Positions 3,250 through 19,659 of a DNA stretch of 64,000 bases are shown one piece after another. Source of the DNA: Candidatus Latescibacterota bacterium (GTDB lineage: Bacteria; Latescibacterota; UBA2968; UBA8231). Below the pieces are notes generated by a model, which had not been told where the DNA came from, searched no databases, and saw only the letters and a list, made by a program, of their open reading frames with translations. The stretch is from the NCBI GenBank assembly GCA_965204725.1, contig OZ242005.1, positions 4,480,001-4,544,000 of the forward strand. The letters are read 5' to 3'. Both the position numbers and the translations under genes were made by a program. Numbering within the stretch: the stretch's first letter is position 1; the number at the start of each line of letters is the position of its first letter.

Positions 3250-3510
3250 ATGATGGCTAGCCTAGAAGAGTTTCCGATATTTGAGTGGGTGCGTAAGCGT
3301 GCGTGGGAGCAGGGGTTTCAGCAGGGGCTTCGGCAAGTGATCCAAGAAACCTTGGCGGTTCGGTTTGCGGAGGATGAAGTACAGGCGGTGGCTGATCGCT
3401 TGGCGGCGATTGAGCAGGTGGACCAACTGCAAGCCTTGCTGCGCATCGCTATACATGTGGAGCAACTAGCCGACTTCACCCGCTTGGTCGATGAGATCAC
3501 CGCCAAATAA
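3250..3510 (+). CDS. Stand-alone Rpn C-terminal-domain (RpnS-like) small protein
   Basis: EQGFQQG...LAVRF...LAAIEQVDQLQALLRIAI resembles the C-terminus of the ORF at 3-668. Confidence 0.6.
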   Translation: MMASLEEFPIFEWVRKRAWEQGFQQGLRQVIQETLAVRFAEDEVQAVADRLAAIEQVDQLQALLRIAIHVEQLADFTRLVDEITAK

Positions 3511-3986: not shown

Positions 3987-4049
3987 GTGCAGACTCAATC
4001 CTCTCAACCTCTTCACGCCTTGCCGCAAGGCTATCGGCTGCAAGAATAC
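3987..4049 (+). pseudogene. 5' stub of a Ser/Thr kinase gene (14306-type)
   Basis: QPLHALPQGYRLQEY matches QPLNALPQGYRLQEY of the kinase at 14306. Confidence 0.75.
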
Positions 4050-4116: not shown

Positions 4117-5538
4117 ATGAGTGAGCCACAGCAGCATCGCTTGGCTCTGCCGCAGGGGACGCGCATTCGGGATTTTGAGTTTCACCGCGTCCTCGGCCAC
4201 GGCGGCTTCGGCATGACCTATCTAGGCTGGAACCTTGCCTTGGATATTCCGGTGGCGATCAAGGAGTATCTGCCGGGCGACTTGGCCACCCGCGAACAAG
4301 ACGGGTCCGTTGTGCCGCAGTCGTCGCAGGCGGCGGCCGATTTCCAATGGGGCTTAGAGCGGTTTTTGGACGAAGCCCGGACGCTAGCGCGGTTCCAACA
4401 TCCCAACATCGTCCGCGTCCTTCACTTCTTTGAAGCGCACAGCACGGCGTATATCGTGATGGAATATGCCGAGGGCGAGACTTTGTCGGCGCATATTGAG
4501 CGCAAAGGGTCGCTGCAAGAAGCCGAACTCAAAGCGATTCTGTATCCGCTGCTGAGTGCCTTGGAGGTGGTGCATGGGGCGGACTTTTTGCACCGGGACA
4601 TCAAGCCGGGCAACATCGTCTTGCGCGATGTGGATGGTTCGCCGGTGTTGTTGGACTTTGGGGCGGCGCGGCAGGCGATTGGGGCGAAGAGCCGGTCGGT
4701 TACGTCTATCGTAACGCCGGGATATGCGCCTATTGAGCAGTATTCGAGCCGAGGACGTCAAGGGGCGTGGACGGATATATATGCGTTGGGGGGCGTGTGT
4801 TATCGGGCGTTGACGGGGGATGTGCCGGAGGACGCCACCGATAGGGTGCGGCATGATCCGCTCGTTCCGATAGCGCAGCGGTGTGCGGGTCGGGTGAGTG
4901 CGGCGTTTTTGTCGGCGGTGGATTGGGCGTTGTCGGTGGACGAGGGGGCTCGTCCGCAGAGTGTGGGAGCGTGGCGGGAGGCGATGGGGGCGGCAGCAGA
5001 GAAGGCGGTGGTGGACGCGCCAAGCGTGGGGCGGGTAGAGCAGGACGCGCCGCCGCTGGAGCAACCGCACGATCCTGACCCCGTGTTCAACGACGATGAG
5101 CTACAGCGTCAGGAACAGGCATTTTTCGCCGAGGTGGGGCGCCAGCCACATCCGAAAGGGAAGTACGGGGGTGAGACCGACCTGCACGTTGCAGCGAGAC
5201 TGAACCTGCCCGTGCTGGCCCGATCCCTGCTCACACAGGGCGCGGATGTCCACGCCAAAAACATCCGTGGCTGGACGCCGCTGCACTGGGCGGCGTATAA
5301 GGATGCTGCTATGACGGCGAAGGTGCTGCTGGAAAACGGCGCGGACGTAAACGCCAAAAACGACCATGGCCAGACGCCGCTGCGCGTAGCGATGGCAGAG
5401 GATGCTGTTGCGACAGTGAAGGTGTTGCGCCGCTCCGGTGGCCGCGTCAACAAGCGGAATGGCGAGGGGAATGGAGGTTGTATGATACTTGTAGGTATAG
5501 GTATGGGGACCATGATTTTGGGCCTTCTTGCCTGTTGA
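4117..5538 (+). CDS. Hanks-type Ser/Thr kinase with ankyrin repeats and C-terminal hydrophobic tail (K1)
   Basis: GHGGFG, VAIKE, HRDIKPGN, DFG, YAPIE; ankyrin TPLHWAA/GADVNAK. Confidence 0.92.
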   Translation: MSEPQQHRLALPQGTRIRDFEFHRVLGHGGFGMTYLGWNLALDIPVAIKEYLPGDLATREQDGSVVPQSSQAAADFQWGLERFLDEARTLARFQHPNIVRVLHFFEAHSTAYIVMEYAEGETLSAHIERKGSLQEAELKAILYPLLSALEVVHGADFLHRDIKPGNIVLRDVDGSPVLLDFGAARQAIGAKSRSVTSIVTPGYAPIEQYSSRGRQGAWTDIYALGGVCYRALTGDVPEDATDRVRHDPLVPIAQRCAGRVSAAFLSAVDWALSVDEGARPQSVGAWREAMGAAAEKAVVDAPSVGRVEQDAPPLEQPHDPDPVFNDDELQRQEQAFFAEVGRQPHPKGKYGGETDLHVAARLNLPVLARSLLTQGADVHAKNIRGWTPLHWAAYKDAAMTAKVLLENGADVNAKNDHGQTPLRVAMAEDAVATVKVLRRSGGRVNKRNGEGNGGCMILVGIGMGTMILGLLAC

Positions 5539-5567
5539 CCGCTAGCTTGAACGTACACGGAGAAGTT

Positions 5568-7160
5568 ATGAAACAATACCTGTTTTTTATCGCGTATCTC
5601 ACAATGGCTTGGCTCCTTTGCACAAGCCCGGTATCGGCGCAAATAGATGTGGATGTGGTCTCTGAAAGCATCGTGCGGGTGCGAGCTTATGACGATCACA
5701 AAGTCGCGGTTGAAGGGAGCGGTTTCGTCGTCGATGAAAAGGGGCACGTGCTGACGAATGCCCACCTCATCGCAAAGGCCGACGGCTTGACCGTATTGTC
5801 CCTGAAGACCGGGGCCGAACTCGTCGCACAACAGGTATTTGCCAGCCGCGCCACGAACTTGGCCCTGTTGCACGTACAGGGCTTGAACCTGCCGCCCCTC
5901 AGCTTGTCCGAGCAAGGAGCCGCTGTAGGCCGCGCTGTGCAAACGCTGCGGTTCGGCTCGGGCGGAAAGGTTCGGCTTTCTCACGGGACGATTGGCACCT
6001 ACCAAGACCTCCGCGACAAGAAAACAAGCCGTCCAATAGCGCACCTGTTACAACACAACGCCCTGATAACGGCCCAAGCCTTTGGCATGCCCTTGTTCAA
6101 CGAATGCGGCGATGTCGTCGCCATCAACCTGCCCGATCCGAGCAGCGGCTCGTGGCCGTTTCGCAAAGCAAAGCCGCAAGGAGCCATTTTTGCCCTGCGT
6201 AGCGGCGACATAATAGCCGCGCTCGAAGACCGAGAAGTCGCCCATACTGTAGTGGAAGCCGAATGCCTGAGTGCGGTTGAACGCGCTGAACGCGACAGAA
6301 AAGCGACCGCCGACAGCCTCCAAGCGGCCAAGGCGAAAGCCGATTCCGCAAGCCAAGCCGCGAAAAAGGCCAAGGCCCAAGAAAAGGCCGCTCGGCGGGC
6401 GGCAGAACGGGCCAAAGCGCGCGCCGATTCCGTAAAGAAAGCAGTGGCCGACAGCCTCCAAGCGGTCAAGGCCCACGCCGACAGCCTCAAGATGGCGAAA
6501 GCGCGCACCGACTCCGCGAGTAAGGCGACCGCCGACAGCCTCAAGACCGCGAAGGCCAAAGCCGACTCCGCGAGCAAGGCGACCGCCGACAGCCTCAAGG
6601 CCGCCCAAGCCCACGCCGATAGCCTCCAAGCGGTGGAAGCAAAGGCTGCGCAACAGTTGCAGTGGGTCCTCGTTGCGGGCGCGGGACTGGTGCTGCTCGC
6701 CCTGCTCGGTTGGTGGCTTTCCGCGCGGCGCAAACAGAAGCAATTACAGGAGGCCGAGGGCCGCGCGAGCGAAGCCGAACAAACGGCGGAAGCCGCGCAC
6801 CAAGCCGCGGCCAACGCCCCTCAACCCGCGCCTTTTAGATGTCTGTTGGAAGGCCAAGACCCCACGGGCCGACCATTCGCCTTGACCCTATCGGCCTTGG
6901 CCTTGAGCGAGCGGGCCGGCGTGACGCTCGGAAGAAGCCCGGCCAACGCCGAATTTATCATTGATCACGAAGAGGTCTCCCGCGAACACATCCGGCTCAG
7001 GTGTGATGACGGCGAACTCTACGCCGAGGATTTGAATGCCCTGAATGGCACCAAGGTAAACGGACGCCTGCTCAATCCCCGCCAACAAGTGCTATTGCAA
7101 AACAACGATCGGCTCGAAGTCGGACCCGTCGTTTTTACCGTGCGTTTGGTGCAGGAGTGA
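5568..7160 (+). CDS. Signal peptide-trypsin-like (degenerate triad)-coiled-coil repeats-TM-FHA protein
   Basis: GSGFVV...TNAHL, but NLALL and AFGMP replace DLA and GNSGGP; KATADSL repeats; TM; FHA GRS...VSREH...NGT. Confidence 0.85.
   Translation: MKQYLFFIAYLTMAWLLCTSPVSAQIDVDVVSESIVRVRAYDDHKVAVEGSGFVVDEKGHVLTNAHLIAKADGLTVLSLKTGAELVAQQVFASRATNLALLHVQGLNLPPLSLSEQGAAVGRAVQTLRFGSGGKVRLSHGTIGTYQDLRDKKTSRPIAHLLQHNALITAQAFGMPLFNECGDVVAINLPDPSSGSWPFRKAKPQGAIFALRSGDIIAALEDREVAHTVVEAECLSAVERAERDRKATADSLQAAKAKADSASQAAKKAKAQEKAARRAAERAKARADSVKKAVADSLQAVKAHADSLKMAKARTDSASKATADSLKTAKAKADSASKATADSLKAAQAHADSLQAVEAKAAQQLQWVLVAGAGLVLLALLGWWLSARRKQKQLQEAEGRASEAEQTAEAAHQAAANAPQPAPFRCLLEGQDPTGRPFALTLSALALSERAGVTLGRSPANAEFIIDHEEVSREHIRLRCDDGELYAEDLNALNGTKVNGRLLNPRQQVLLQNNDRLEVGPVVFTVRLVQE
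6300..6630 (+). repeat. Imperfect coding repeats (KATADSL.AAKA.ADS)
   Basis: Repeated GCGACCGCCGACAGCCTCAAG/CCAA units. Confidence 0.8.
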
Positions 7161-7163
7161 ACG

Positions 7164-8516
7164 TTGCACCGATTCAGACGCTGGCGTCTAGTCTTTTTTC
7201 TCTTCTTGCTGCTACAGCCGCGCCATGCCGTGGCCGCACCCGACTTTGACGCGCTCGAAAAGAGCGTGGTCCGCATTGTCCGGCAGACCGACCGAGGACT
7301 TAGTGCTGGCACGGGATTCGCCATAAACGACCAAGGCCATATTGCGACCAACGTCCACGTCATCGCCGACGCCCACGCAATCCAAGCCATCCCAACCAAC
7401 GCCAACGCGCTATACGACGTGGAGGTAATCGCCACATCCCCAGAACTCGACCTCGCAATCGCCTATACCCCCGACCTAGCCCTGCCGCCAATCGCGCTGT
7501 CGCTCGCCCCCGCCACAAAAGGGCAAAAGGTATGGGCCATAGGCTATCCCGGGGGGGCCGACCGCAACAAACTGGCGCACGACCCGACCGTGCAAGACGG
7601 CATCATCGGGCGGATTTTTTTAGGCGCGTGGCACACCCAACAACTCAGGATTATCCAGCACAATGCGCCGACCAACCCGGGCAACAGCGGCGGCCCCCTA
7701 TTGGACGATTGTAGCCGGGCGGTCGGCGTCAATACGCAGGCGTCGCTCGTGGTCATTAGCAGCCCGTCGAGCGGGGTGACGCGCGTGCCCCATGCCGCGG
7801 GCATTTACTGGTCTTCGCATATCGAGGAGTTGGCAACTCTGTTGGACGACCACAACATTGCCTTCCAACCGGAGCATGACGATTGTGTGGCGGCTGGGGG
7901 CACAGGAGGTTCGGGCAGTTCGGGTAGTTCGGGCGCGGCGGAAAAGGCGCGGCGAGAAGCAGAGAAGGCGCGGCGCGAGGCCGAACAAGCGCGAGCGCAA
8001 GCCGAACAAGCAAGCGATCAGTTTCTCGTCTGGCTGCTATTGTTGAGTGGGGTCGCCTTGGTCGCCTTGGTCGTTGCCTTAAAGAAGCCGCGCCAAATCG
8101 CCCAACAGACCTTGGAAAAGCCGCGCCAGATCGTCCAACACATCAGTCGGCGCGTGACCAAAAGGGAAGGGGCTGTTGCAAAACGTCCCCATCACGGCAT
8201 CGTGCTGGCTGGTTTTGACGGGCGCGGCAACCGCGTCTGCATTGAGCTATCACCCGCCCGATTTGCCGGTCAACGCTTGGGGCTTTCGCTTGGTCGGCAT
8301 CCCGAGTTGGTTGATGAAGTCGTAGCGGATGAAAACGTATCCCGGCGGCATCTGCGAATTGTAGCCGCGGGCGATCAATTTTACGTCGAAGATTTGAACT
8401 CCAGCAATGGGACGTTTCTGAACGAGCAACGTCTAGTCCCCTTTAAGCCGACGCGGTTGAACTACGGGGCCAACGTCGCGTTGGGCGATTTGGTCCTCAT
8501 GGCGTCCAAACTTTAG
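7164..8516 (+). CDS. Trypsin-like serine protease-TM-FHA protein (intact triad)
   Basis: TNVHV, DLAI, PGNSGGP; TM FLVWLLLLSGVALVALVVAL; FHA GRH...VSRRH...SSNGT. Confidence 0.9.
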   Translation: MHRFRRWRLVFFLFLLLQPRHAVAAPDFDALEKSVVRIVRQTDRGLSAGTGFAINDQGHIATNVHVIADAHAIQAIPTNANALYDVEVIATSPELDLAIAYTPDLALPPIALSLAPATKGQKVWAIGYPGGADRNKLAHDPTVQDGIIGRIFLGAWHTQQLRIIQHNAPTNPGNSGGPLLDDCSRAVGVNTQASLVVISSPSSGVTRVPHAAGIYWSSHIEELATLLDDHNIAFQPEHDDCVAAGGTGGSGSSGSSGAAEKARREAEKARREAEQARAQAEQASDQFLVWLLLLSGVALVALVVALKKPRQIAQQTLEKPRQIVQHISRRVTKREGAVAKRPHHGIVLAGFDGRGNRVCIELSPARFAGQRLGLSLGRHPELVDEVVADENVSRRHLRIVAAGDQFYVEDLNSSNGTFLNEQRLVPFKPTRLNYGANVALGDLVLMASKL

Positions 8517-8530
8517 ATGGGGTCTTGGGT

Positions 8531-9418
8531 GTGAAAAAACGCAGCCGCGAGCTCAACATCTTTAGCATGTCCGCGCTCGACCTGTTCGCATCGGCTCTCG
8601 GCGCCTTCATCCTCATTACCATCGTGCTGCTGCCCTTTTTTCCGAATCTAAGCCTATCGGGACAAGAAAAGGCCGAACTAGAGCAGGCCCAAGCCGAGTT
8701 GGCGCAGGCTCAGGCCGAGCTAGAAAAAGAGAAATCCAAGCAGGCCAAGCTGGCGAGAGAGAAGGCCAGACTAGAGCGAGAAAAAGCCAAGCTGGAGCAG
8801 GCCAAGGCCAAAGCTCCGAAAACAAAAAGTCAGCTCGAAAAACGGGTGGAGGCTTTGCAACAGGAGATCGACGACACCACCGTTTTATTGGGCATTAAGA
8901 CGAAGGCGAAAAAGTTCGCATTCGTCATAGACATGTCGGGCAGTATTTACCAGCCTGGGCAGAACGATTATCGCCCGTTCATAACCTTGTCCATCCAAGA
9001 CATGCTCGCGGCCTTTAAGTCGGAAATAGAGGTCTGTCTCATTGGGTTTCAAGGCTCGAATCCGTTGCGCTATTGGCCGCAAAACAGAGGGTACTTTCAA
9101 GTAAACAAGAATACGCGCAATCGCGTCGTCGAACAGGTAGAACGCTGGATGAGATTGGTGAACGGCGGCACGCCCACACGCGCCGCTTTGCTAGCGGCGA
9201 TTGCATTGCACCCCGAAGAGATCATCCTGTTGAGCGATGGTGCCCCCTCAGAGGATTGGGACATGGTCGTGCGGGCTGTAACCGCGGCGAATAGTCGGAG
9301 AATACCCATCCACGCCGTAGCCGTCGGCCATTACACGGCGGACCGGAACTTTATTGACTTTCTGGTGCAGCTAACTAAGCGGAACAAGGGGTCTGTCGTG
9401 GGAGCTAAACCGGGTTGA
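8531..9418 (+). CDS. Membrane-anchored vWA-domain protein with MotB/ExbD-like Asp-containing TM
   Basis: KKRSRELNIFSMSALDLFASALGAFILI; coiled coil; MIDAS DMSGS...GGTP...LSDG. Confidence 0.82.
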   Translation: MKKRSRELNIFSMSALDLFASALGAFILITIVLLPFFPNLSLSGQEKAELEQAQAELAQAQAELEKEKSKQAKLAREKARLEREKAKLEQAKAKAPKTKSQLEKRVEALQQEIDDTTVLLGIKTKAKKFAFVIDMSGSIYQPGQNDYRPFITLSIQDMLAAFKSEIEVCLIGFQGSNPLRYWPQNRGYFQVNKNTRNRVVEQVERWMRLVNGGTPTRAALLAAIALHPEEIILLSDGAPSEDWDMVVRAVTAANSRRIPIHAVAVGHYTADRNFIDFLVQLTKRNKGSVVGAKPG

Positions 9419-9536
9419 TATAGCAAGCAATTCTACATCATTCAGGACTGGATTCCCGCCCCGTGTCGGGGCACGGGGTGACGTTCTTTCGCGGGAATGA
9501 CGCCTCATAAACAAAAAGACGGTGCCGATGAACATT
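9419..9536. mobile_element. MITE-like element with nested REP (family of 51668-51786), one end truncated
   Basis: Starts TATAGCAA; aligns in reverse to ~51700-51786; REP at 9448-9501 carries an extra inner hairpin. Confidence 0.7.
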
Positions 9537-9905
9537 ATGAACAAATCGAGTTTTTCCGTGTATCGAATCGGGCGCGGCTCGGGTGTGGACATTCGGCTGG
9601 ACGATGATTCGGTCTCGCGCGTCCACGCCGAGCTTATTGCGACGCAAAGCGGCTCGTACTATCTCACGGATTGCGCCAGCAGCCGGGGGAGTTACGTGGC
9701 GCGCAACGGCGAGTGGTGCCGCATCCGGCAGGAATTCATAAGCCCGACCGACGCGCTTTTACTCGGTCACTATCAGACGACCGCCCCTGCACTCGTCGCA
9801 CTGGCGGCGCAAAAGGTACGCCGTTCAGGAGGCGGGGCATCCCTGCCCGAAGGGCTGGTGCGGCGCAACGCAGAAACGGGCGAGATCATGGGCGAGGAGA
9901 ACTGA
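9537..9905 (+). CDS. FHA-domain protein
   Basis: IGRG...DDDSVSRVHAEL...LTDCASSRGS; start codon uncertain. Confidence 0.82.
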   Translation: MNKSSFSVYRIGRGSGVDIRLDDDSVSRVHAELIATQSGSYYLTDCASSRGSYVARNGEWCRIRQEFISPTDALLLGHYQTTAPALVALAAQKVRRSGGGASLPEGLVRRNAETGEIMGEEN

Positions 9906-9906
9906 C

Positions 9907-10692
9907 ATGGCAACAGGGCAAGGGGCCGAGCTGGAGCAACGCCTCAAAGCAAGCGGCGTCAGCCTCATTGGAGGCGTCGTATCCATCGCGATTATGAGCC
10001 TTATTTTCGCGCATCCCGATTCGGCGGCGGGCGCGTTCCTGCTCGACCGCCACACTGAGAATTTTCCCTACCCGTTTACGATCCAAAACGTCATGTGGCT
10101 CATGTTTTGGATTGGCTGCGGCGAACTCTGGGTGCGGTTTAACCAAGCCAAGCTGGAAATGGAGCAGATGTCGAAACGCTATCTGCCGGAAGACGATGAG
10201 GTCATGTTGCGGGCGCGAGATTTGGGGGCCTTTTATCAAAAGGTGCGGCCGAGGGCCGAGGAGCGTCCCTCCTTCTTACAACGTCTGATCGCGCGCTGCA
10301 TCTTGCAATTTCAGGGGAGCCGCTCGGTCAATCAGGCCAACTCGCTGCTGAATTCTTCCCTCGAATTATTCCAACACGAGCTCGAACTCAAATACGCGAT
10401 GTTGCGCTATCTCGTCTGGCTGATACCCACGTTGGGGTTTATTGGCACGGTGGTCGGCATTGCGTTTGCGCTGGATTATGCGGCCAACGTTGACGATCCC
10501 CAAGACCCGACCTTGCTGGCCGAGATCACGGGTCGGCTGGGCGTTGCGTTTTACACTACTTTGCTCGCGTTGGTTCAGTCGGCCCTCTTGGTGTTTGCGC
10601 TGCACATTGCCCAAGGCCGCGAAGAGATGGCCTTGAACCAATCCGGCCAATACTGTTTGGACAACCTAATCAACCGGCTTTACGAAAAGTAA
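9907..10692 (+). CDS. MotA/TolQ/ExbB proton-channel family protein
   Basis: IPTLGFIGTVVGI and LGVAFYTTLLAL signature helices plus N-terminal TMs. Confidence 0.88.
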   Translation: MATGQGAELEQRLKASGVSLIGGVVSIAIMSLIFAHPDSAAGAFLLDRHTENFPYPFTIQNVMWLMFWIGCGELWVRFNQAKLEMEQMSKRYLPEDDEVMLRARDLGAFYQKVRPRAEERPSFLQRLIARCILQFQGSRSVNQANSLLNSSLELFQHELELKYAMLRYLVWLIPTLGFIGTVVGIAFALDYAANVDDPQDPTLLAEITGRLGVAFYTTLLALVQSALLVFALHIAQGREEMALNQSGQYCLDNLINRLYEK

Positions 10693-10722
10693 GTGGCCGG
10701 ATAACCCCAATAGGAGGGCACT

Positions 10723-11418
10723 ATGCCTGTTTATCGCGGACCCGATGGCAAAATCATTGAAGAGAAAACCGATGCACGGAAAGAGGATACCAAACCAACA
10801 GACGTGGCCAATAGGCCGCTGCCGCCGGCCCCACAGGGCGGCGAGCAACCCGCTGGCGGCGGGCGTTTAGACGCGCCTACGCAGCGGATGGGTGAACGCC
10901 CGGCGCCAGCCGATGTCGGCGAAGAGGAAAGGGGCGAGAGCCAAGCGCCGGCCCGTGTCGGCGAGGAGGAAAGGACGCGCTTGGTGGGCGGGCGACCGCG
11001 GCGCGAAGACGAGGAGCGGCGGCAGGAGCGCGCCGTAGCGGATCGCGGCATGGACGATCCGGTTGTGGGGTGGTTGGTGGTGGTCGAGGGGCCGGGCAAG
11101 GGGCGGGCCGTGCCGCTAGGCTATGGGTCCAATTCGATTGGGCGCGGGGCCACCGACCGCATCAAGCTCGATTTTGGCGACGAGCAGATTTCGCGTAGCG
11201 GCCATGCCGTTGTCACGTATGACCCGCGCGGCCGGCAGTATTACGTGCAGCACGGCGGCGGCACCAACCTGACGTATCTCGGGGATCAGCCCGTGCTCGC
11301 TCCGACTGGGTTGCCGGCGCTGAGCCACATTAGCATCGGCCATACGGTGCTCCGGTTCGTGCCCCTGTGCGGTGCGGAGTTCGACTGGCAGGATACCGAA
11401 GGAAACGAGGCGCGATGA
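10723..11418 (+). CDS. FHA-domain protein with disordered Thr-containing N-terminus
   Basis: PVVGWLVVVEGPGKG...IGRG...DEQISRSGHA; SD GGAGGG. Confidence 0.85.
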   Translation: MPVYRGPDGKIIEEKTDARKEDTKPTDVANRPLPPAPQGGEQPAGGGRLDAPTQRMGERPAPADVGEEERGESQAPARVGEEERTRLVGGRPRREDEERRQERAVADRGMDDPVVGWLVVVEGPGKGRAVPLGYGSNSIGRGATDRIKLDFGDEQISRSGHAVVTYDPRGRQYYVQHGGGTNLTYLGDQPVLAPTGLPALSHISIGHTVLRFVPLCGAEFDWQDTEGNEAR

Positions 11419-12503
11419 ACGAATTAGACGGGCGTTTTGCCGCGCGGCAAATTCCCGGCCAACGGGATTATCAAGAGGATGATTACGGCCTGTTGGATGG
11501 CCGCGACCTCGGCTTGGATGGCCGCGAGCACTCCATGTTGTTGGTCGCTGACGGCATGGGCGGTCACGTGGGCGGCGCAACGGCCAGCGGCCTTTTGAGC
11601 AAGACCTTTGTCGAGGCGTATTCGCAGGCGACCGGCCCCATTGTCGATCGGCTCCGCACCTGCCTCGACGAGGCCAATGCCGCTCTGGCCTCCGCCATTG
11701 CCGAAAACCCCGAACTCGATAGCATGGGTTCGACTTTGGTCGCGGCGGTGGTTTCCGGCGAAGGGCTGAACTGGATCAGCGTGGGCGACTCGCCGTTGTG
11801 GTTGTTCCGCGGGGAGCAACTGGAGCGTCTGAATGCAGACCATTCTATGGCACCCGTTCTGGCCGACTTGGTGGCAACCGGGCGCATGACCGCTGAGGAA
11901 GCGGCTCAGGACTCAAGCCGACATTCGCTGCGGTCGGCGGTCATGGGCGACGACATCGCTATGATTGACGTGTCGTCGCAGCCGGTGACCGTGCAGCCGG
12001 GCGACCGGGTGCTCTTGGCGAGCGATGGGTTGATGACCCTCAGCGATCAAGAGATTTCGGCTATTCTCGTGCAAACGCAGGACGCGCCTTTGGAGGATAG
12101 CGTCGCAGCCCTTATCCAAGCGGTGGAAGCGGCCGACCATCCCCATCAGGACAACACGACCGTCCTGTTGTACGAACCGGCCGAGGGCACGGACACGGAG
12201 TTGGGCGCGGCGGCTCAGGGCGCGGGGGAAGCGGTGCAGGATAAGCCGCGTTCCAAACGCTGGGGCAGGGTCGGGCTGTTGGGGGTGTTGCTCTGCGTTG
12301 TCGTCGCATTGGGGGCGATGATTTATTGGTTTGAACAGCAGGGCGAATCGGTGCCTGTTGAGATGCAGGCCGCCCCGGCTGTTGAACCCGCTGAAGAGGC
12401 TGCACCGGCTTCTCAGGAGGAGGCGACAGAGGACAGCGAGAAAGCCGTGCTTGACGAGCCGCAAACAGAGAAAGAAGAACGCGTTGGGGCGGAGGAGGAG
12501 TAA
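11415..12503 (+). CDS. PP2C-family Ser/Thr phosphatase with C-terminal TM
   Basis: RDYQED, VADGMGG, GST, VGDS, ASDG, DNTT; ATGA overlap with the upstream gene. Confidence 0.92.
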   Translation: MNELDGRFAARQIPGQRDYQEDDYGLLDGRDLGLDGREHSMLLVADGMGGHVGGATASGLLSKTFVEAYSQATGPIVDRLRTCLDEANAALASAIAENPELDSMGSTLVAAVVSGEGLNWISVGDSPLWLFRGEQLERLNADHSMAPVLADLVATGRMTAEEAAQDSSRHSLRSAVMGDDIAMIDVSSQPVTVQPGDRVLLASDGLMTLSDQEISAILVQTQDAPLEDSVAALIQAVEAADHPHQDNTTVLLYEPAEGTDTELGAAAQGAGEAVQDKPRSKRWGRVGLLGVLLCVVVALGAMIYWFEQQGESVPVEMQAAPAVEPAEEAAPASQEEATEDSEKAVLDEPQTEKEERVGAEEE

Positions 12504-12548
12504 TGGGTTGCCCCAAGGACCGGCGATGTCCTTTGTCTTGGTACGCCA

Positions 12549-12671
12549 ATCGGATATATTTCTCCCGCTTACAGCCTCCTCCTCAGACGAAAGGCACGGA
12601 TGGCTGAATTTGATAGCGTTTCCAAGTTGCTTTTGAGCACCCATCCGCAAGGCTTTTTGGCCTTTCTACTC
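12549..12671 (+). pseudogene. Leader and 5' stub of an Rpn-family gene
   Basis: ATCGGATATATTTCTC...AGACGAAAGGCAC leader shared with 3201-3247; MAEFDSVSKLLLSTHPQGFLAF from ATG 12600 resembles Rpn N-termini. Confidence 0.55.
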
Positions 12672-12687
12672 AAGAATAGGAAAAATT

Positions 12688-14286
12688 ATGAGTGAGACAC
12701 AGCAGCATCGCTTGGCCCTGCCGCAGGGGACGCGCATTCGGGATTTTGAGTTTCATCGCGTCCTCGGCCACGGCGGCTTTGGTATTACCTATCTGGGATG
12801 GAACCTATCCTTGGATATTCCGGTGGCGATCAAGGAGTATCTGCCGGCCGACTTAGCTACCCGCGAACAAGACCTATCTGTCGTCCCGCAGACGTCGCAA
12901 GCGGCGGCCGATTTCCAATGGGGCTTGGAGCGGTTCGTGGACGAGGCCCGCACACTGGCGCGGTTCCAACATCCCAACATCGTCCGCGTCCATCAATACT
13001 TTGAAGCGCATAGTACGGCGTATATCGTGATGGACTATGTCGAGGGCGAGACCTTATCGGCGCATCTTGAACGCAAGGGGACGCTGAGCGAAGCGGAGCT
13101 TACGGGCATTCTGTATCCGCTGCTGAATGCCTTGGAGGTGGTGCATGGGGCGGACTTTCTGCATCGGGACATCAAGCCGGGCAACATCGTCCTGCGCGAT
13201 TCGGATAGTTCGCCGGTGTTGCTGGACTTTGGCGCGGCGCGTCAGGCTGTCGGGGCGAAGAGCCGGTCGGTAACGTCTATCGTGACGCCGGGGTATGCGC
13301 CGCTGGAGCAGTATTCAAGCCGGGTGCTTCAAGGGCCTTGGACGGACCTTTATGCGTTGGGGTGTGTGTGTTATCGGGCGTTGACTGGTCAGATTCCGGC
13401 AGATGCGACCGATAGGATGCGGGATGATCCGCTCGTTCCGGTTTCTCAGCGGTGTGCAGGTAGTGTGAGTGGTGCGCTTTTGTCGGCGATAGATTGGGCG
13501 TTGTCGGTGGATGAGCGGGCTCGTCCGCAGAGTGTGGGGACATGGCGGGCGGCGATGGAGGGGACGGCAGCGGCAGGGCAGCAAGCGCACCGCCGAGACG
13601 AGGAGAGGCACGGTACGGGAGACGAAATCGCTGATGCGCCGGTTGCTGCTCAGGCTGCCTCCAGAGTTAAAGACGCGAAGCGGTTAAACAGGTGGTTTAA
13701 GCTCCACTACATTTGCCTTGCTGCCGTCATACCACCGACTGCATTGTTTGCTGTCATCGCTGGGTTTTTAGAGTCGCAGGGGTTGAAGCCGGATGTCACA
13801 TTCGGACTACTTGGCATCATAGTCGCTATCGTTGATGTCGTGTTTTTGGTACTTACTATCGTGTTCGGTTTACGCATCCTACATAAGTTGTGGTCACTCA
13901 TCCCCACTCACAAAGCAAGGACGACACCGGGGAAAGCAATCGGATTTCTCTTCATACCGCTATTTAACCTCTACTGGAACTTCGTTGCAATTTACGGTCT
14001 CGCCAAAGCTCTCAATACCGAAACGGGTCGAAGATCCGTCAGTGAGGTAACCAGTTTTATTTATTGCTGCTCATTTTGGGTGTATCTGGTGGATCTTTTA
14101 TGGGCAATAACGAAAGAGAGTAAGAGGATGGGGGTGGGAGAATTTTTATGGGCGATAGTGGCAGGGCGAGAGGATCAGGCTTGGATAGTCTATATTGGAT
14201 ATATTGTCGGGTTTGTGCTCTGGTTCGTCATGCTAAGGCAAATGAAGAACGCTGGCAGACTCATCTTACAAGGGGACAAGGCGTAG
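12688..14286 (+). CDS. Ser/Thr kinase with multi-TM C-terminal domain (DUF4328/DUF4234-like) (K2)
   Basis: Intact kinase motifs; TPGKAIGFLFIPLFNLYW motif; about 5 TM helices; visibly lower-GC 3' half. Confidence 0.9.
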   Translation: MSETQQHRLALPQGTRIRDFEFHRVLGHGGFGITYLGWNLSLDIPVAIKEYLPADLATREQDLSVVPQTSQAAADFQWGLERFVDEARTLARFQHPNIVRVHQYFEAHSTAYIVMDYVEGETLSAHLERKGTLSEAELTGILYPLLNALEVVHGADFLHRDIKPGNIVLRDSDSSPVLLDFGAARQAVGAKSRSVTSIVTPGYAPLEQYSSRVLQGPWTDLYALGCVCYRALTGQIPADATDRMRDDPLVPVSQRCAGSVSGALLSAIDWALSVDERARPQSVGTWRAAMEGTAAAGQQAHRRDEERHGTGDEIADAPVAAQAASRVKDAKRLNRWFKLHYICLAAVIPPTALFAVIAGFLESQGLKPDVTFGLLGIIVAIVDVVFLVLTIVFGLRILHKLWSLIPTHKARTTPGKAIGFLFIPLFNLYWNFVAIYGLAKALNTETGRRSVSEVTSFIYCCSFWVYLVDLLWAITKESKRMGVGEFLWAIVAGREDQAWIVYIGYIVGFVLWFVMLRQMKNAGRLILQGDKA

Positions 14287-14305
14287 AAATCACATTGGAG
14301 ATGCT

Positions 14306-16105
14306 ATGAGCGAATCACCCCAACCGCTCAACGCCTTGCCGCAAGGTTATCGGCTGCAAGAATACGAACTGGTACGCGTGTTAGGTTTTGGCGGCTTCGG
14401 CATGACCTATTTGGGCTTTGACCACAACTTGGACAAGCCCGTCGCCATCAAGGAATATCTGCCATCGGACATTGCCACCCGCACTGCCGCCCGCAGCGTC
14501 TCCCCGCAAGCCAGCGAGTTTCGCGGCGATTTTCAATGGGGGCTGGAGCGGTTCGTGGACGAAGCTCGCACTTTAGCTCGCTTTGACCATCGCCACATCA
14601 TCAAGGTGCATCGTTTCTTTGAAGCGCATGGTACGGCGTATATCGTGATGGAATATGCCGAGGGCGAGACCTTATCGGCGCATCTTGAGCGCAAGGGGCC
14701 ACTGCAAGAAGCCGAACTCAAAGCGATTCTGTATCCGCTGCTGGATGGTTTAGAGGTGGTGCATGGGGCTGATTTTCTGCATCGGGACATCAAGCCGGGT
14801 AACATCGTCTTGCGGGATTCGGATGGTTCGCCGGTGTTGCTGGACTTTGGGGCAGCGCGGCAGGCGGTTGGGGCGAAGAGCCGGTCGGTAACGTCTATCG
14901 TGACGCCGGGGTATGCGCCGATTGAGCAGTATTCAAGCCGAGGACATCAGGGGGCGTGGACGGATATATATGCGTTGGGGGGCGTGTGCTATCGGGCGTT
15001 GACCGGGCAGGTGCCGGAGGACGCGACCGATAGAGTGCGGCATGATCCGCTCGTTCCGGTGGCGCAGCGGTGTGCGGGTCGGGCGAGTGCGTCGTTTTTG
15101 TCGGCGGTGGATTGGGCGTTGTCGGTGGACGAGGGGGATCGTCCGCAGCGTGTGGGGGCGTGGCGGGAGGCGATGGAGGGGGCGGCGGCAGAGGAGGTGG
15201 TGGTGGACGAGACTAGCGTAAGGCGGGTGGAGCAGGATGCGCCGCCACTGGAGAGGCCGAATAAGACCCGATTTAAGTGGCTTGCTGTCTTGGGCGCGGT
15301 TGCTCTCTTGGGTGGGGGCGTAATATATGTTGAGCATGCTGCCGAGCAGCGGCGGGAACAGGCGGCGTTAGAAAAGCAGCGGCAGGAGCAAGCGGCGTTA
15401 GAAAAACAGCGGCGGGAGCAAGCGGCATTGGAAAAACAGCGGCGGGAACAGGCGGCGTTGGAGCGGCAGGAACAGGCATTTGTCGCCGAGGTGGGGCGCA
15501 AACCAGATCCGAGAGGGATATACGAGGGTGCGACTGATCTGTTCGTTGCAGTGAGCCTGAACCTGCCCGTGCTGGTCCGATCCCTGCTCACACAGGGCGC
15601 GGAGCTAAACGCCCAAGACAGTGACGGCTGGACGTCGCTGCACTACGCGGCGTATAATGATGCGTCTGCAGCGGCGAAGGTGCTGCTGGAAAACGGTGCC
15701 CAAGTAAACGCCCAAGACAACGAGGGCCTGACGCCGCTGTACTACGCGGCGTCTAATGATGCGTCTGTAACGGCGAAGGTGCTGCTGGAAAACGGTGCCC
15801 AAGTAAACGCCCAAGACAACAATGGCGCGACGCCGCTGCACTACGCAGCATATAATGATGCGTCTGTAACAGCGAAGGTGCTGCTGGAAAACGGTGCCCA
15901 AGTAAACGCCCAAGACAACAATGGCGCGACGCCGCTGCACTACGCAGCGTATAATGATGCGTCTGTAACAGCGAAGGTGCTGCTGGAAAACGGTGCCCAA
16001 GTAAACGCCCAAGACAACAATGGCGCGACGCCGCTGTCCGTGGCGATGGAGAAGAATGCGTTTGAGACCGCCGCGGTACTGCTCCTCTACGTTGGGCGAG
16101 AGTGA
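14306..16105 (+). CDS. Ser/Thr kinase-TM-coiled coil-ankyrin repeat protein (K3)
   Basis: Intact kinase motifs; TM WLAVLGAVALLGGGVIYV; QRREQAALEK x4; tandem ankyrins. Confidence 0.92.
   Translation: MSESPQPLNALPQGYRLQEYELVRVLGFGGFGMTYLGFDHNLDKPVAIKEYLPSDIATRTAARSVSPQASEFRGDFQWGLERFVDEARTLARFDHRHIIKVHRFFEAHGTAYIVMEYAEGETLSAHLERKGPLQEAELKAILYPLLDGLEVVHGADFLHRDIKPGNIVLRDSDGSPVLLDFGAARQAVGAKSRSVTSIVTPGYAPIEQYSSRGHQGAWTDIYALGGVCYRALTGQVPEDATDRVRHDPLVPVAQRCAGRASASFLSAVDWALSVDEGDRPQRVGAWREAMEGAAAEEVVVDETSVRRVEQDAPPLERPNKTRFKWLAVLGAVALLGGGVIYVEHAAEQRREQAALEKQRQEQAALEKQRREQAALEKQRREQAALERQEQAFVAEVGRKPDPRGIYEGATDLFVAVSLNLPVLVRSLLTQGAELNAQDSDGWTSLHYAAYNDASAAAKVLLENGAQVNAQDNEGLTPLYYAASNDASVTAKVLLENGAQVNAQDNNGATPLHYAAYNDASVTAKVLLENGAQVNAQDNNGATPLHYAAYNDASVTAKVLLENGAQVNAQDNNGATPLSVAMEKNAFETAAVLLLYVGRE
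15347..15466 (+). repeat. 30-bp tandem repeat x4 (QRREQAALEK)
   Basis: CAGCGGCGGGAACAGGCGGCGTTAGAAAAG-like units. Confidence 0.88.
15608..16036 (+). repeat. 99-bp tandem ankyrin repeats
   Basis: AACGCCCAAGACA recurs at 15608, 15707, 15806, 15905, 16004. Confidence 0.93.
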
Positions 16106-16121
16106 ACGGATCGAAGCGGCT

Positions 16122-16276
16122 ATGATCGAAGTCCCCCAACCTCTCAACGCCTCGCCCCAAGGCCCTCGGCTGCAAGAGCGCGTGTTGGGCTTTGGCGGCT
16201 TTGGCACGACCTATCGGGGCTTTGACCACAACTTGGATTTGTCGCCGAAGTGGGGCGCAACCCACATCCGCGAGGG
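16122..16276 (+). pseudogene. Internally deleted kinase-ankyrin gene remnant
   Basis: MIEVPQPLNASPQGPRLQE-RVLGFGGFGTTYRGFDHNLD joined to TTGTCGCCGAAGTGGGGCGCAACCCACATCCG, the pre-ankyrin linker of K1/K3. Confidence 0.8.
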
Positions 16277-16291
16277 AGGAACAGGAAACAG

Positions 16292-18649
16292 ATGATCAAT
16301 TTTCTCAGTCGCTATCTACATTGGATGCACCTGCGGTGGCCCGCCGGCGTAGTCGAGAAATTGCCGCGGGTGGATGAACACGGGCAAAGCAATGTCTCCG
16401 GGCTGTACATCGTCGGCGACCTAACCGGGATTCCCCTGTTGAAGTTCTCGGCCGATACGGGCGCACGGGCCGTGCAGCACATCGCGGCCGACGAGACATT
16501 CCAGCGCGATAAGGGCCGAGAGGATGTCTTGGACTTGGCGATTGTCGGCGCGGGCGTCTCCGGCATGTCCGCGGCCTTAGAGGCGCGCGAGGCCGGGTTG
16601 TCGTTTGTGTTGTTGGAGGCGACCGAGCCGTTCTCCACGCTGGTCAACTTTCCCAAAGAGAAGCCCATTTACACCTATCCCACCGAGATGGAGCCGGCCG
16701 GACAACTCCGCTTTGCCGCCGAAGTCAAGGAACCTCTAATCAACGAACTGCAAGCGCAGACCCTCGCCCAAGGCATCGAGCCGACTCTGGCGCGGGTTGA
16801 GCAAGTAAAAAAGCAGGGCGATCACTTTGAATTGGAAATTCCGCGCCAAGAAAACATCAGGGCCAGCCGAGTCATCGTCGGGATTGGCCGCTCGGGCAAC
16901 TTTCGCAAACTAGGGGTGCAGGGCGAGAATTTGGCCAAGGTCTCCAACCGCTTGCACGACCCGGTTGACTTCTGCGACAAAGACGTGCTAGTCGTGGGCG
17001 GCGGCGACAGCGCGTTAGAGGCGGCCATTGCCATCGCCCAATGCGGGGGGCGCGTGACCGTTTCCTACCGCAAGCCCGAGTTTTCTCGCCCCAAGCCCGA
17101 AAACGTCGAAAAGCTGAACGCGCTCGCCGCCGATCCCATGGCGGCCGTAGCCGTGGATACTCCTTCTTCCGAGCGGGTGACGACCAGCAGCGGGGCCTTT
17201 ATGGAGGAAGGCCGCCAAGCGGGTTCGATCCGCCTGCTGATGGCCAGCCAAGTACAGCGCATCAAGGAAGACGCGGTCGCGCTCAAAGACGCCGAAGGCG
17301 AGGAATTGAGCCTGCCCAACGACGCGGTGTTTTCCATGATTGGGCGCGAGGCCCCGCTCAACTTTTTCAGACGCAGCGGCGTGGAGATCAACGGCGAGTG
17401 GCGACCGGGCCGCTGGCTGTCTTTGGGGTTCATCATGCTGGCGGCAGTTTTCATCTACCACTGGAAGACCGACGCGGGCATTCCCATCAAGCGCTGGTTC
17501 CAAGAAGCCAATTTCTTCCCCTTCAACCTAGCGGCACCGCCAGCCGCCCATACCTTGTGGGACACAGTCCAAGTGTCAATGACCCAGCCGAGTTTCTACT
17601 ACTCGCTGGCTTATTGCCTGTGCGTCGTCCTATTCGGCTTGCAGCGCATAAAGCGGCGACGCACACCGTACATCAAAGTGCAGACCCTGACGCTGATGGC
17701 GATCCAGTGCATTCCGCTCTTTCTGCTGCCCTATCTGGTTTTGCCTTGGGCCGGGTACAATGGCTGGTTTGACGAGGGTGCTTGGCTCAAGCCGCTGGCC
17801 GACGCCTTGTTCCCCGAGTCGCAATGGGCCGAACACGGGCGCGAGTACTGGCGCTCGCTGGGGCTGATTCTCGCTTGGCCGCTGTTCTTCTGGAACGTCT
17901 TTACCAGCGAGCCGCTGTGGTGGTGGCTGGCGATTAGTCTAGTGCAGACCTTTGTCATCATACCGCTGATCATCTACTTCTGGGGCAAAGGGGCGTACTG
18001 CGGCTGGATCTGCTCATGCGGTGCCCTAGCCGAAACCATGGGCGACAATCACCGGCACAAGATGCCGCACGGCATGGTGTGGAACAAGGCGAACATAGTG
18101 GGGCAGGTCGTGCTGCTACTGGCTAGCGTACTGCTCATTGCGCGCCTAGTGGGCTGGGCTTTGCCGCACGATCACTGGATCAACGGGTTCTACATGGGGC
18201 TGTTTATGGGCAAAGGCACAAACTGGGGTAACCTGCCCTTCCCACTAACCTTTCTCAACTACGTGTGGTCGGTTGATCTGCTGCTCGCTGGCATCTTAGG
18301 CGTCGGGTTGTACTGGCATTTTAGCGGCCGGGTGTGGTGCCGCTTCGCCTGCCCACTGGCGGCCCTGATGCACATCTACACGCGCTTCAGCCGCTTCCGC
18401 ATCCTCGCCGACAAGAAAAAGTGCATCTCCTGCAACGTCTGCACCTCGGTATGCCACCAAGGCATCGACATTATGAACTTCGCCAACAAGGGGCTACCGA
18501 TGGCCGACCCAGAGTGCGTCCGCTGTAGCGCGTGTGTGCAGTCTTGTCCGACAGGTGTGCTGGAATTCGGTCAGGTTGACAAAAGCGGCGCAGTGATAAA
18601 GACCGACGAACTGGCGGCGTCGCCGGTGCGGATGCGGGAAGATAAATAA
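16292..18649 (+). CDS. FAD/NAD(P) TrxR-like oxidoreductase fused to membrane 4Fe-4S (NapH/Fer4_5-like) domain
   Basis: GAGVSG, VGGGDSA; CGWICSCG, CRFACP, two CxxCxxCxxxC motifs; many TMs. Confidence 0.85.
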   Translation: MINFLSRYLHWMHLRWPAGVVEKLPRVDEHGQSNVSGLYIVGDLTGIPLLKFSADTGARAVQHIAADETFQRDKGREDVLDLAIVGAGVSGMSAALEAREAGLSFVLLEATEPFSTLVNFPKEKPIYTYPTEMEPAGQLRFAAEVKEPLINELQAQTLAQGIEPTLARVEQVKKQGDHFELEIPRQENIRASRVIVGIGRSGNFRKLGVQGENLAKVSNRLHDPVDFCDKDVLVVGGGDSALEAAIAIAQCGGRVTVSYRKPEFSRPKPENVEKLNALAADPMAAVAVDTPSSERVTTSSGAFMEEGRQAGSIRLLMASQVQRIKEDAVALKDAEGEELSLPNDAVFSMIGREAPLNFFRRSGVEINGEWRPGRWLSLGFIMLAAVFIYHWKTDAGIPIKRWFQEANFFPFNLAAPPAAHTLWDTVQVSMTQPSFYYSLAYCLCVVLFGLQRIKRRRTPYIKVQTLTLMAIQCIPLFLLPYLVLPWAGYNGWFDEGAWLKPLADALFPESQWAEHGREYWRSLGLILAWPLFFWNVFTSEPLWWWLAISLVQTFVIIPLIIYFWGKGAYCGWICSCGALAETMGDNHRHKMPHGMVWNKANIVGQVVLLLASVLLIARLVGWALPHDHWINGFYMGLFMGKGTNWGNLPFPLTFLNYVWSVDLLLAGILGVGLYWHFSGRVWCRFACPLAALMHIYTRFSRFRILADKKKCISCNVCTSVCHQGIDIMNFANKGLPMADPECVRCSACVQSCPTGVLEFGQVDKSGAVIKTDELAASPVRMREDK

Positions 18650-18817: not shown

Positions 18818-18955
18818 CCTTACTACACGACACCAGCCTTCAGCCTTCCAAGGATCGAGGGCATCTTGCCCTCGTCGAGGGCGGGACGCCCTCGATCCCG
18901 GACGCAGTGGGAGCAGCAGAAAATGCGTACACAAAGCAGGTGTCGCGTACTTAGG
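18818..18955. mobile_element. 138-bp MITE-like element with internal GAGGGC palindromes
   Basis: TIR CCTTACTACACGACACC / GGTGTCGCGTACTTAGG (14/17); flanks ACTGAGA/ACTGAAA; partial copies at 46059 and 55030. Confidence 0.75.
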
Positions 18956-19001
18956 ACTGAAACTTTACTTTTAAGAACGCCTCTAACATTTCACAAAGGA
19001 G

Positions 19002-19253
19002 ATGATCGTGAAAGACATTACCCTACATGCCGACGAAAACTTGATCGCATCGGCACACCGATGCGCGGAGGCGAACCGCACGACCTTAAACGAGCAATTT
19101 CAGTTGTGGCTGAAAGACTACGTTCAGCGCAACGAGGACTGCGTTCAGCGCGAAAACCAGGCCGCCGAAGCCATGGAAGTCATCCGCGACCTGCAAGGCA
19201 GCATCTTCACTGGCGGGCGAAAATTTACGCGGGAAGAGATGAATGAGCGTTGA
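19002..19253 (+). CDS. Antitoxin (VapB/DUF6364-like)
   Basis: KDITLHADENLI...TTLNE...GRKFTREEMNER; overlaps the downstream PIN gene. Confidence 0.75.
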   Translation: MIVKDITLHADENLIASAHRCAEANRTTLNEQFQLWLKDYVQRNEDCVQRENQAAEAMEVIRDLQGSIFTGGRKFTREEMNER

Positions 19254-19659
19254 AAATTTTTTTGACACCAATGTTCTCATTTACCTGTTTGATGGAACCG
19301 ATGACGCCAAACGCGAAAGAGCAGAACTTCTAATTCAACAGGCTTTGGATAACGAGACCGGTTGTATCAGTTATCAGGTCGTCCAAGAGACGATGAACGT
19401 CATAACCCGAAAACTCAATGCAACGCCCGAGAAAGCTCTCCAATTATTAGATAGGGTGTTGGTGCCTCTTTGGCAGATTAACCCGACCCGGACGCTTTAC
19501 CGACGTGGCCTTGATCTGCAAGCTCGCTATGGGTTCAGTTTCTACGATTCGCTGATCATTGCCGCCGCGCTCGAAGCGGGCTGCACCTGTCTTTACAGTG
19601 AAGACATGCAGGATGGCCAGCAGATACAGAGCTTGACCATTCAAAATCCATTCGCGTAA
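19243..19659 (+). CDS. vapC: PIN-domain toxin (VapC-like)
   Basis: FDTNVLIY, QVVQE, FSFYDSLIIAAA, LYSEDMQ. Confidence 0.9.
   Translation: MSVENFFDTNVLIYLFDGTDDAKRERAELLIQQALDNETGCISYQVVQETMNVITRKLNATPEKALQLLDRVLVPLWQINPTRTLYRRGLDLQARYGFSFYDSLIIAAALEAGCTCLYSEDMQDGQQIQSLTIQNPFA

Follow-up and report, generated by a model that had tools for sequence, protein, structure and literature searches.

The best explanation for ten adjacent genes in a 64,000-nucleotide window (the whole stretch of DNA analysed here; Candidatus Latescibacterota bacterium, assembly GCA_965204725.1, contig OZ242005.1, positions 4,480,001 to 4,544,000) is that they encode one accessory envelope machine. The genes are co-directional on the + strand at window positions 4117-16105, based on a six-frame open reading frame (ORF) listing and Pfam searches, and run in the order K1, T1, T2, B, F1, A, F2, P, K2, K3. 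They encode three kinases (K), two protease-FHA proteins (T), a vWA protein with an aspartate in its membrane helix (B), two cytoplasmic FHA proteins (F), a TolQ/ExbB-like channel subunit (A) and a PP2C phosphatase (P). What is already known is the predicted motor core, i.e., a TolQ-like channel with an aspartate-helix vWA partner; what is new is that a complete phospho-switch and a pair of proteases, one live and one dead, travel with this core. The cassette is kept in at least five phyla.

An earlier reading of the sequence (hereafter, the original prediction) had described these domains and their order, and Pfam found every named domain on the + strand, including those of a phosphorylation writer, an eraser and four FHA readers, while hydropathy placed the membrane segments where they had been claimed. 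The predicted span of 4117-16276 does contain the ten genes, but the cassette ends at 16105, and 16276 lies 26 bases inside the next gene. None of the cassette proteins reached a curated NCBIfam cut-off, and neither PADLOC nor NCBIfam has a model for the cassette as a system. No paper describing the cassette as a whole came out of a literature search for a motor combined with FHA, PP2C, kinase, vWA and trypsin, and the text of a survey of MotAB relatives (PMC12505986, mBio 2025) does not contain the term FHA.

Conservation and genomic setting of the gene set

The locus scan covered one genome per species for about 185,000 species genomes and returned 501 candidate stretches, 475 of which were confirmed. 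Synteny, part and tree counts cover the best 80 of these 475 loci, with flanks of up to 10 kb on each side; families were assigned by searching the ORFs of the 80 loci with the ten window proteins, and the 57 loci with complete 10-kb flanks form the full-flank subset. A was present in 80/80 loci (overlaps removed) and in 57/57 full-flank loci, kinase genes in 73/80 and 56/57, PP2C in 72/80 and 54/57, F2 in 69/80 and 56/57, B in 65/80 and 54/57 (within 10 kb of A), protease-FHA genes in 62/80 and 51/57, and F1 in 58/80 and 43/57. Six families occurred together in 49/80 loci (48/57 with full flanks), and all seven in 40/80 (37/57). Co-occurrence of the core genes in other genomes, on which the original prediction had staked its case, was therefore found across phyla. 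Hanks kinase, FHA and PP2C genes are widespread and frequently lie in clusters, and unrelated signalling and envelope genes might in principle have come to lie side by side by chance. We regard this as extremely improbable: the six or seven families recur around A across phyla in rearranged order, which excludes adjacency by chance, and one genome holds duplicates of the whole cassette.

The order F1-A-F2-P is nearly fixed, and the protease, B and kinase genes switch sides between lineages. Where a locus lacked B near A, B was found on the same contig in 3/3 genomes, about 17, 29 and 120 kb away; two full-length B genes were present in 3/80 loci (L044, L045 and L068). The record titles name Latescibacterota, Gamma- and Alphaproteobacteria, Acidobacteriota, Binatota and Gemmatimonadota, with one contig labelled Acidimicrobiaceae, and some short Gemmatimonadota and Acidimicrobiaceae contigs placed among Latescibacterota may be mis-binned. 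Carriers include the cultured marine bacteria Nioella ostreopsis Z7-4 and Gammaproteobacterium LSUCC0112. No further neighbour was conserved across the family, the largest non-core neighbour family being found in 12/80 loci. One subtype with the order T B A F2 P K (11-12 loci, e.g., L035:14219-17788) has neither F1 nor a live protease, and its extra, conserved neighbours encode a 1189-aa protein with WD40 and LRR domains and two proteins of 613 and 523 aa without a Pfam match.

Presence within the phylum is patchy. The A profile (E ≤ 1e-30) matched 35/168 genomes, distributed as 22/75, 10/31 and 2/22 in three families (f1, f2 and f4) and 0/39 in the other eleven families. In the genus of the window, A was found in 16/30 genomes, and five single-contig genomes that are 93-94% complete are without it. 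Some genomes carry two or three copies; one genome has three whole cassettes, whose corresponding parts share 86-96% identity. Phylum labels are clustered on a tree of 81 A sequences (9 changes against a minimum of 5; 0/200 shuffles as low), and the Latescibacterota lie inside a larger, starred clade common with gammaproteobacterial groups. We read the distribution as that of an accessory cassette inherited mostly vertically within lineages, with some old transfers.

In the window, intergenic spacing ranges from -4 to 184 bases in the ORF listing (Table 1). T1 probably starts at 5568 and P at 11415; given the latter, F2 and P overlap by four bases, and the F1 stop lies one base before the A start. 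The host genome (5.43 Mb, two contigs, completeness 94%) surrounds the cassette with ordinary chromosome and housekeeping genes. Upstream lies a gene for a DUF3179 protein, and an 86-aa ORF without a family match (3250-3510, + strand) stands between it and the gap upstream of the cassette. The next gene on the 3' side (16250-18649) encodes a pyridine-nucleotide oxidoreductase with Fe-S domains that is unrelated to the cassette. It is followed, 2.7 kb 3' of the cassette, by a small ORF overlapping a PIN-domain gene (PIN 1.3e-15) by four bases (18866-19659, + strand), probably a VapBC-type toxin-antitoxin pair, and then by genes for PPK2, chorismate synthase, carA, hisHF, proB, recO, glyS, tig, clpPX, serA and purA. 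No mobile-element or defence-island signature was seen around the locus. A terminator-like hairpin between B and F1 might, on weak evidence, attenuate transcription or divide the cluster into two transcripts; in a promoter and terminator scan of the region, site counts were not above shuffled expectation.

Table 1 Features of the cassette in window coordinates (TM, transmembrane helix, in residues).
Feature	Description	Position	Strand	Evidence
Remnant	Kinase 5' end remnant	3999..4049	+	17 codons matching the K3 N-terminus; stop about 40 bases on; about 70 bases upstream of K1
K1	Hanks Ser/Thr kinase, ankyrin, C-terminal anchor	4117..5538	+	Pfam Pkinase 4.9e-37, Ank 2.1e-16; hydrophobic segment 455-473
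T1	Trypsin-like domain, repeat stalk, TM, FHA	5568..7160	+	Pfam Trypsin_2 9.4e-17, FHA 1.5e-15; TM 367-385
T2	Trypsin-like protease, short stalk, TM, FHA	7164..8516	+	Pfam Trypsin_2 3.2e-26, FHA 2.8e-16; TM 288-306
B	Candidate motor axle; TM, long helix, vWA head	8525..9418	+	Pfam VWA 6.8e-6, 26.9 bits vs cut-off 23.8
Hairpin	Terminator-like hairpin between B and F1	9457..9480	+	10 pairs, 7 G-C
F1	Small cytoplasmic FHA protein	9522..9905	+	Pfam FHA 9.8e-13
A	TolQ/ExbB-like channel subunit, 261 aa	9907..10692	+	Pfam MotA_ExbB (PF01618) 6.1e-10, 39.4 bits vs cut-off 22.9
F2	Cytoplasmic FHA protein	10723..11418	+	Pfam FHA 9.7e-6
P	PP2C phosphatase, TM, acidic tail	11415..12503	+	Pfam PP2C_2 6.7e-12; TM 286-304
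K2	Hanks kinase and five-helix membrane domain	12688..14286	+	Pfam Pkinase 8.1e-38; five hydrophobic segments
K3	Hanks kinase, TM, repeat stalk, ankyrin array	14306..16105	+	Pfam Pkinase 9.5e-38, Ank_2 1.6e-66; TM 325-343

The predicted motor core, subunits A and B

Homologues of A were numerous (2842 sequence clusters at E ≤ 1e-3 in the protein collection), and their names say nothing beyond 'MotA/TolQ/ExbB family' or 'hypothetical'. Solved TolQ and PomA were barely recognised by the A profile (best E 0.57 against PDB sequences), hence a fold search was performed. With the AlphaFold model of A (predicted local distance difference test, pLDDT, 81), the top Foldseek rows were all TolQ, ExbB or stator chains at probability 1.00, with TolQ first, followed by ExbB and flagellar stator chains. 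The TM-scores (query/target-normalised) were 0.53/0.62 for 9avi_A and 0.60/0.70 for 8vlw_B, both TolQ, and the best E value was only 1.3e-3. A is a TolQ/ExbB-type channel protein, and it appears to have one N-terminal helix more than TolQ, giving four membrane helices in total. Its periplasmic loop is strongly conserved (D47, R48, Y55-T58, Q60 and N61 invariant), and P174, T175, G177, G180, T181, T217 and T218 of the last two helices are invariant in 14 sequences; these are presumably the equivalents of the TolQ/ExbB pore threonines. A was always the best-conserved part of the cassette, with 57-95% identity to the window against 31-91% for the other parts.

One apparent natural FHA-MotA fusion among the A homologues (P0019) was rejected as an artefact, its sequence being a frameshifted F1 read into A. 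The fifth MotA_ExbB-family gene of this genome (locus L095, G000:C1:1786244-1786468) is a 371-aa ORF with a 139-aa ORF just 3' of it, probably an ordinary ExbB/ExbD-type pair with an N-terminal extension.

B is encoded 489 bases upstream of A. As the original prediction had stated for this gene, an aspartate (Asp19) lies inside the sole membrane helix; it is present in 67/67 sequences and invariant in the alignment (A4). Residues 1-42 are nearly invariant from Latescibacterota to Rhodobacterales, and a P-x-x-x-N motif directly follows the helix. The model of B (pLDDT 78) has a membrane helix at 16-38, a single 72-residue helix at 46-117 and a confident alpha/beta domain, and a fold search with this head returned integrin I-domains, ITIH1 and CMG2 (183 matches at E ≤ 1e-3, the best at 1.2e-8). 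Many heads among the B homologues are not vWA, which makes a count of the metal-ion-dependent adhesion site (MIDAS) over all of them unreliable; in a vWA-clade alignment of 13 sequences, used instead, the MIDAS residues D136, S138, S140, T218 and D238 are invariant. Seven loci (L048, L054, L057, L058, L060, L072 and L075) have an alternative head of about 110 residues that keeps the aspartate helix and stalk and has no significant Pfam match, with a hint of DUF2135 (E 0.055) in L046 only, one of six scanned.

No ExbD, TolR or OmpA/MotB domain was found by Pfam in the ten cassette proteins. Given this and the invariant Asp19 helix, we interpret B as the inner, aspartate-carrying subunit of a motor of the TolQ type, replacing TolR, ExbD or MotB. 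With TolQR-TolA, ExbBD-TonB and MotAB the cassette shares the fold of A, the Pfam family and an aspartate of the essential type in a partner helix. It is unlike them in the very remote sequence similarity and the extra N-terminal helix of A, and in having neither a TolR/ExbD/MotB periplasmic domain nor a TolA/TonB-like partner. The membrane helices of T1 and T2 contain no His, hence no SHLS-type motif.

A motor core of this kind has been predicted before. The main text of PMC12204202 (Mol Biol Evol 2025) describes tolQ-like genes without tolR or exbD that are tightly linked to membrane-tethered vWA proteins, whose 'transpore helix' (TPH) bears a conserved aspartate; AlphaFold 3 models put the aspartates within the threonine ring, and TPH-vWA is predicted to be the inner dimer of a 5:2 motor. 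The cassette agrees with that description in its tolQ-like A, its lack of tolR, exbD and motB, and its adjoining single-pass vWA protein with a helix aspartate. The likeness is one of described features. The published family was seeded from Idiomarina, and its TPH-vWA genes mostly form heterologous pairs (a tendency, not a rule), whereas the window has a single B. The phospho-switch and the protease pair are in the cassette and not in the main-text description, where the words 'kinase' and 'protease' occur 0 times and the sole word-start match to 'FHA' is FhaC. The original prediction knew of no description of the combination; this holds for the kinase/FHA/protease wiring as far as that main text goes, but not for the motor core.

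The original prediction had also likened A and B to ZorAB, which came down to weak partial profile matches (E about 1e-5 and 3e-4), i.e., A to ZorA at 9.8e-6, with the ZorA2 profile (505 positions) matched at 37-124 only, and the B N-terminus to the ZorB/MotB N-terminal profile at 2.8e-4. As in Zorya, the cassette has a MotAB-like pair in a non-flagellar, non-uptake use, and it could be a Zorya-type anti-phage or conflict system in which a disturbed envelope would be sensed by the motor and answered by the kinases or proteases with a defence response. The patchy presence with closed genomes lacking the cassette, the two or three copies in some genomes, and kinase arrays with signs of turnover all fit such a system. 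We nevertheless consider it unlikely. A has no long ZorA tail, the C-terminal domain of B has the vWA fold and not the peptidoglycan-binding domain of ZorB, and A is conserved across phyla to a degree unlike typical fast-evolving defence genes. PADLOC found no Zorya effector (ZorC/ZorD or ZorE-type) among the ten proteins and no system-level match, no nuclease, NTPase or other known effector is encoded, and the neighbours are housekeeping genes.

Kinases, phosphatase, FHA readers and the protease pair

All three kinases keep the G-loop, VAIK, HRD and DFG motifs, and P shares its conserved metal-binding motifs with its homologues in an alignment of 75 sequences, so the three Hanks kinases and the phosphatase look catalytically intact from their motifs. 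P matched the NCBIfam Stp1/IreP type at 4.7e-39, below the cut-off. The catalytic domains of K1-K3 are 76-86% identical and the remainder differs; the kinases of other loci carry Sel1, PG_binding_1 with a beta-helix, giant ankyrin arrays, or nothing recognisable, in one to six kinase genes or gene fragments per locus. This variety agrees with the description of the system as 'sensor-diversifying' in the original prediction. The K1 ankyrin repeats precede the C-terminal anchor and are therefore probably cytoplasmic, and the K3 array follows the membrane helix and is therefore probably outside the cytoplasm. The kinase remnant upstream of K1 looks like what is left of a kinase gene that was lost or recombined.

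Tandem DNA repeats underlie the periplasmic stalks of K3 (15347-15459; 30-bp unit × 3.8), T1 (6476-6619; 54-bp unit × 2.7), T2 (7941-8011) and B (8742-8797), and also the K3 ankyrin array (15606-16036; 99-bp unit × 4.4, 93% identity). Stalk and sensor lengths are therefore likely to be evolutionarily labile.

The Gly-Arg, Ser-x-x-His and Asn positions are kept in all four FHA domains; these are the known phosphothreonine-binding residues of the fold. In F1 (alignment A3), G17, R18, S32, R33 and H35 are invariant, and in F2 (alignment A2), T85, G140, R141 and N182 are invariant and S157, R158 and H161 near-invariant. Both proteins also conserve a motif outside the FHA domain. The C-terminal tail of F1 has a conserved motif with a near-invariant Thr119 (≥90% conserved) followed by Gly-Glu-Ile, and F2 has a conserved N-terminal motif. 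In F2 the invariant Thr85 lies elsewhere, after acidic residues in an otherwise variable, disordered linker. Many FHA domains prefer pT-x-x-I/L/V, which Thr119-Gly-Glu-Ile fits, and we infer that F1 Thr119 and F2 Thr85 are candidate kinase targets. By eye, the F1 tail (9837-9905) resembles the F2 head (10723-10770) in a shared P-V-x-R-x-P...G-x-I-I, and the two may be copies of one docking peptide flanking A; a regular expression for this motif matched the kinase catalytic loop too, hence gave no valid test.

A membrane Hanks kinase, PP2C, FHA readers and a vWA domain in one module at the inner membrane are also found in the threonine-phosphorylation pathway of type VI secretion (PpkA, PppA, Fha1 and TagH). 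PpkA has a periplasmic vWA domain; in the cassette, vWA is on the motor subunit B and not on a kinase. The cassette might accordingly be a phospho-switch for a machine encoded elsewhere, as PpkA, PppA and Fha1 are for type VI secretion, and the occurrence of kinase, PP2C and FHA together, with weak TagH-type matches of the FHA domains, is in line with this. It is nonetheless very unlikely. PADLOC found no secretion-system genes at the locus, as had been predicted for both these and Zorya effectors, and TssC (PF05943) had 0 matches in this 94%-complete genome. Across phyla the switch genes stay with A and B, so that the adjacent motor is the simplest controlled machine.

Related operons without a motor are known. 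The TerY-P triad is an operon of vWA, Ser-Thr kinase and PP2C genes without a motor. The Deinococcus DRA0331-0334 operon holds vWA, Ser-Thr kinase, FHA and PP2C genes, likewise without a motor, in the available text of bioRxiv 10.64898/2026.01.23.701218. Both resemble the cassette in bringing these families into one operon, and neither is known to have a TolQ-like channel, an aspartate helix on the vWA protein or protease-FHA proteins.

T1 and T2 are predicted to have the protease domain in the periplasm and FHA in the cytoplasm, and the T1 N-terminus is signal-like. At the triad positions T1 has H-N-F and T2 has H-D-S, as the original prediction had proposed in calling them pseudo-trypsin and trypsin. 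In an alignment of + strand T-family ORFs of at least 330 residues, representing 60 loci, the full His-Asp-Ser triad was present in 42/42 T2-type and 0/53 T1-type sequences, and H-N-F in 30 of the T1-type. Judged by these residues, T2 is an active-looking protease and T1 its conserved, catalytically dead partner. Live and dead forms occurred together in 34 of the 60 loci, the live form only in 7, and the dead form only in 19. One of these 19 (L085) has a second protease-FHA gene of 239 aa that ends at the contig end and is below the 330-residue limit. Compared with HtrA and DegS, the trypsin fold with a His-Asp-Ser triad is present in T2 and not in T1, no PDZ domain was found by Pfam, and the NCBIfam HtrA/DegS models gave 43-68 bits against cut-offs of 250-470.

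Another 4 of the 19 dead-only loci are SAR86-type, and the opposite strand there carries a thermolysin-TM-FHA protein (Peptidase_M4_C 3.6e-34), adjoined by a PP2C fused to a thermolysin-propeptide domain (FTP 3.2e-10). This swap of the live trypsin for thermolysin-TM-FHA suggests that a protease outside, one membrane helix and FHA inside form a recurring, conserved design. The SAR86-type loci without live trypsin are L062-L064, L067 and L079, in which the genes for thermolysin-FHA and the PP2C with its inhibitor-type propeptide are divergent from the motor genes (e.g., L063:5317-7665(-) and L062:7704-9452(-)).

A TolQ-like motor accompanied by a membrane protein with a cytoplasmic FHA domain and a periplasmic extension is also known from Myxococcus Agl-Glt (AglRQS and GltG). 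In PMC11761067, an FHA domain adjoining the GltG membrane helix is predicted to sit on the TolQ-like AglR pentamer, a precedent for the mechanism proposed below. T1 and T2 differ in having the opposite orientation (periplasmic part N-terminal) and protease folds, and no other Glt genes are at the locus. The NCBIfam GltG model gave 28.5 bits for F1 and 15.7 bits for T2, far below the cut-off of 650.

By analogy with Agl-Glt and CglB, the motor could move or tension a vWA adhesin in a trans-envelope adhesion, gliding or host-contact machine, with the kinases reading host or matrix cues, which would matter most in sponge symbionts with ankyrin sensors. The B head is of integrin type with an intact MIDAS, gliding is proposed as a role of vWA force transducers in the main text of PMC12204202, the kinase ectodomains have eukaryote-like repeats (Ank and Sel1), and nearly identical DNA was found in runs labelled sponge metagenome (weak evidence, at shares of about 0.4). 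The absence of any conserved outer-membrane or secreted partner among the neighbours, the replacement of the vWA head in many lineages, and the probable cytoplasmic location of the K1 ankyrin repeats speak against this reading, which we hold to be improbable.

Proposed mechanism

The best reading, to which we give an even chance, is a phosphorylation-gated envelope motor with its output in the periplasm. A and B would form a proton-driven motor with a 5:2 stoichiometry, as in their homologues, and the B stalk would extend into the periplasm with the integrin-like vWA head on it. The membrane kinases would sense conditions via their variable, interchangeable non-catalytic domains and phosphorylate F1 Thr119 and F2 Thr85 in the disordered tails, and probably themselves too. 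The FHA domains of T1, T2, F1 and F2 may then dock on the phosphothreonines, so that the motor and the protease pair are assembled or gated, and PP2C would reset the phosphorylation state. The output would be force or proteolysis acting on a ligand, of the envelope or the surface, that the B head holds. It is most likely periplasmic because the set has no DNA-binding component or transcription factor.

Several observations weigh against this scheme. A Pfam vWA domain (E ≤ 1e-3) was found in 20/38 representative B homologues and the other 18/38 are without a detectable one, so the design does not require a vWA head, and what stays constant in B is the pore helix. F1 is missing from 14/57 full-flank loci. 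The alignment of A has no invariant cytoplasmic threonine, and the link between the FHA proteins and the motor therefore comes from gene adjacency alone; a predicted complex of A and F2 (alignments A1 and A2) scored 0.00, which counts neither for nor against contact. With the dead protease only in 19/60 loci, proteolysis as a universal output may be doubtful. T1 and T2 show little conservation in their membrane helices, which speaks against TolA-like docking. We infer every protein contact, the stoichiometry, the phosphosites and the output.

A more specific possibility, which is rather doubtful, is a proton-powered periplasmic protease machine. The motor would grip and pull a protein substrate via the B stalk and head, the live/dead pair would cut it, and threonine phosphorylation would time the run. 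If this were true, the job that AAA+ unfoldases do for cytoplasmic proteases would be done in the ATP-free periplasm.

The known roles of ion-driven 5:2 motors are in flagella, uptake, the integrity of the envelope, gliding and, in one case, defence against phages. To our knowledge, no such motor is coupled to membrane-tethered proteases or has a kinase, a phosphatase and phosphothreonine readers of its own. The cultured carriers, Nioella ostreopsis Z7-4 and LSUCC0112, make the cassette directly testable, and the wiring of a phosphorylation-gated motor, if real, would mean that eukaryote-like phosphorylation gates mechanical work across the bacterial envelope.

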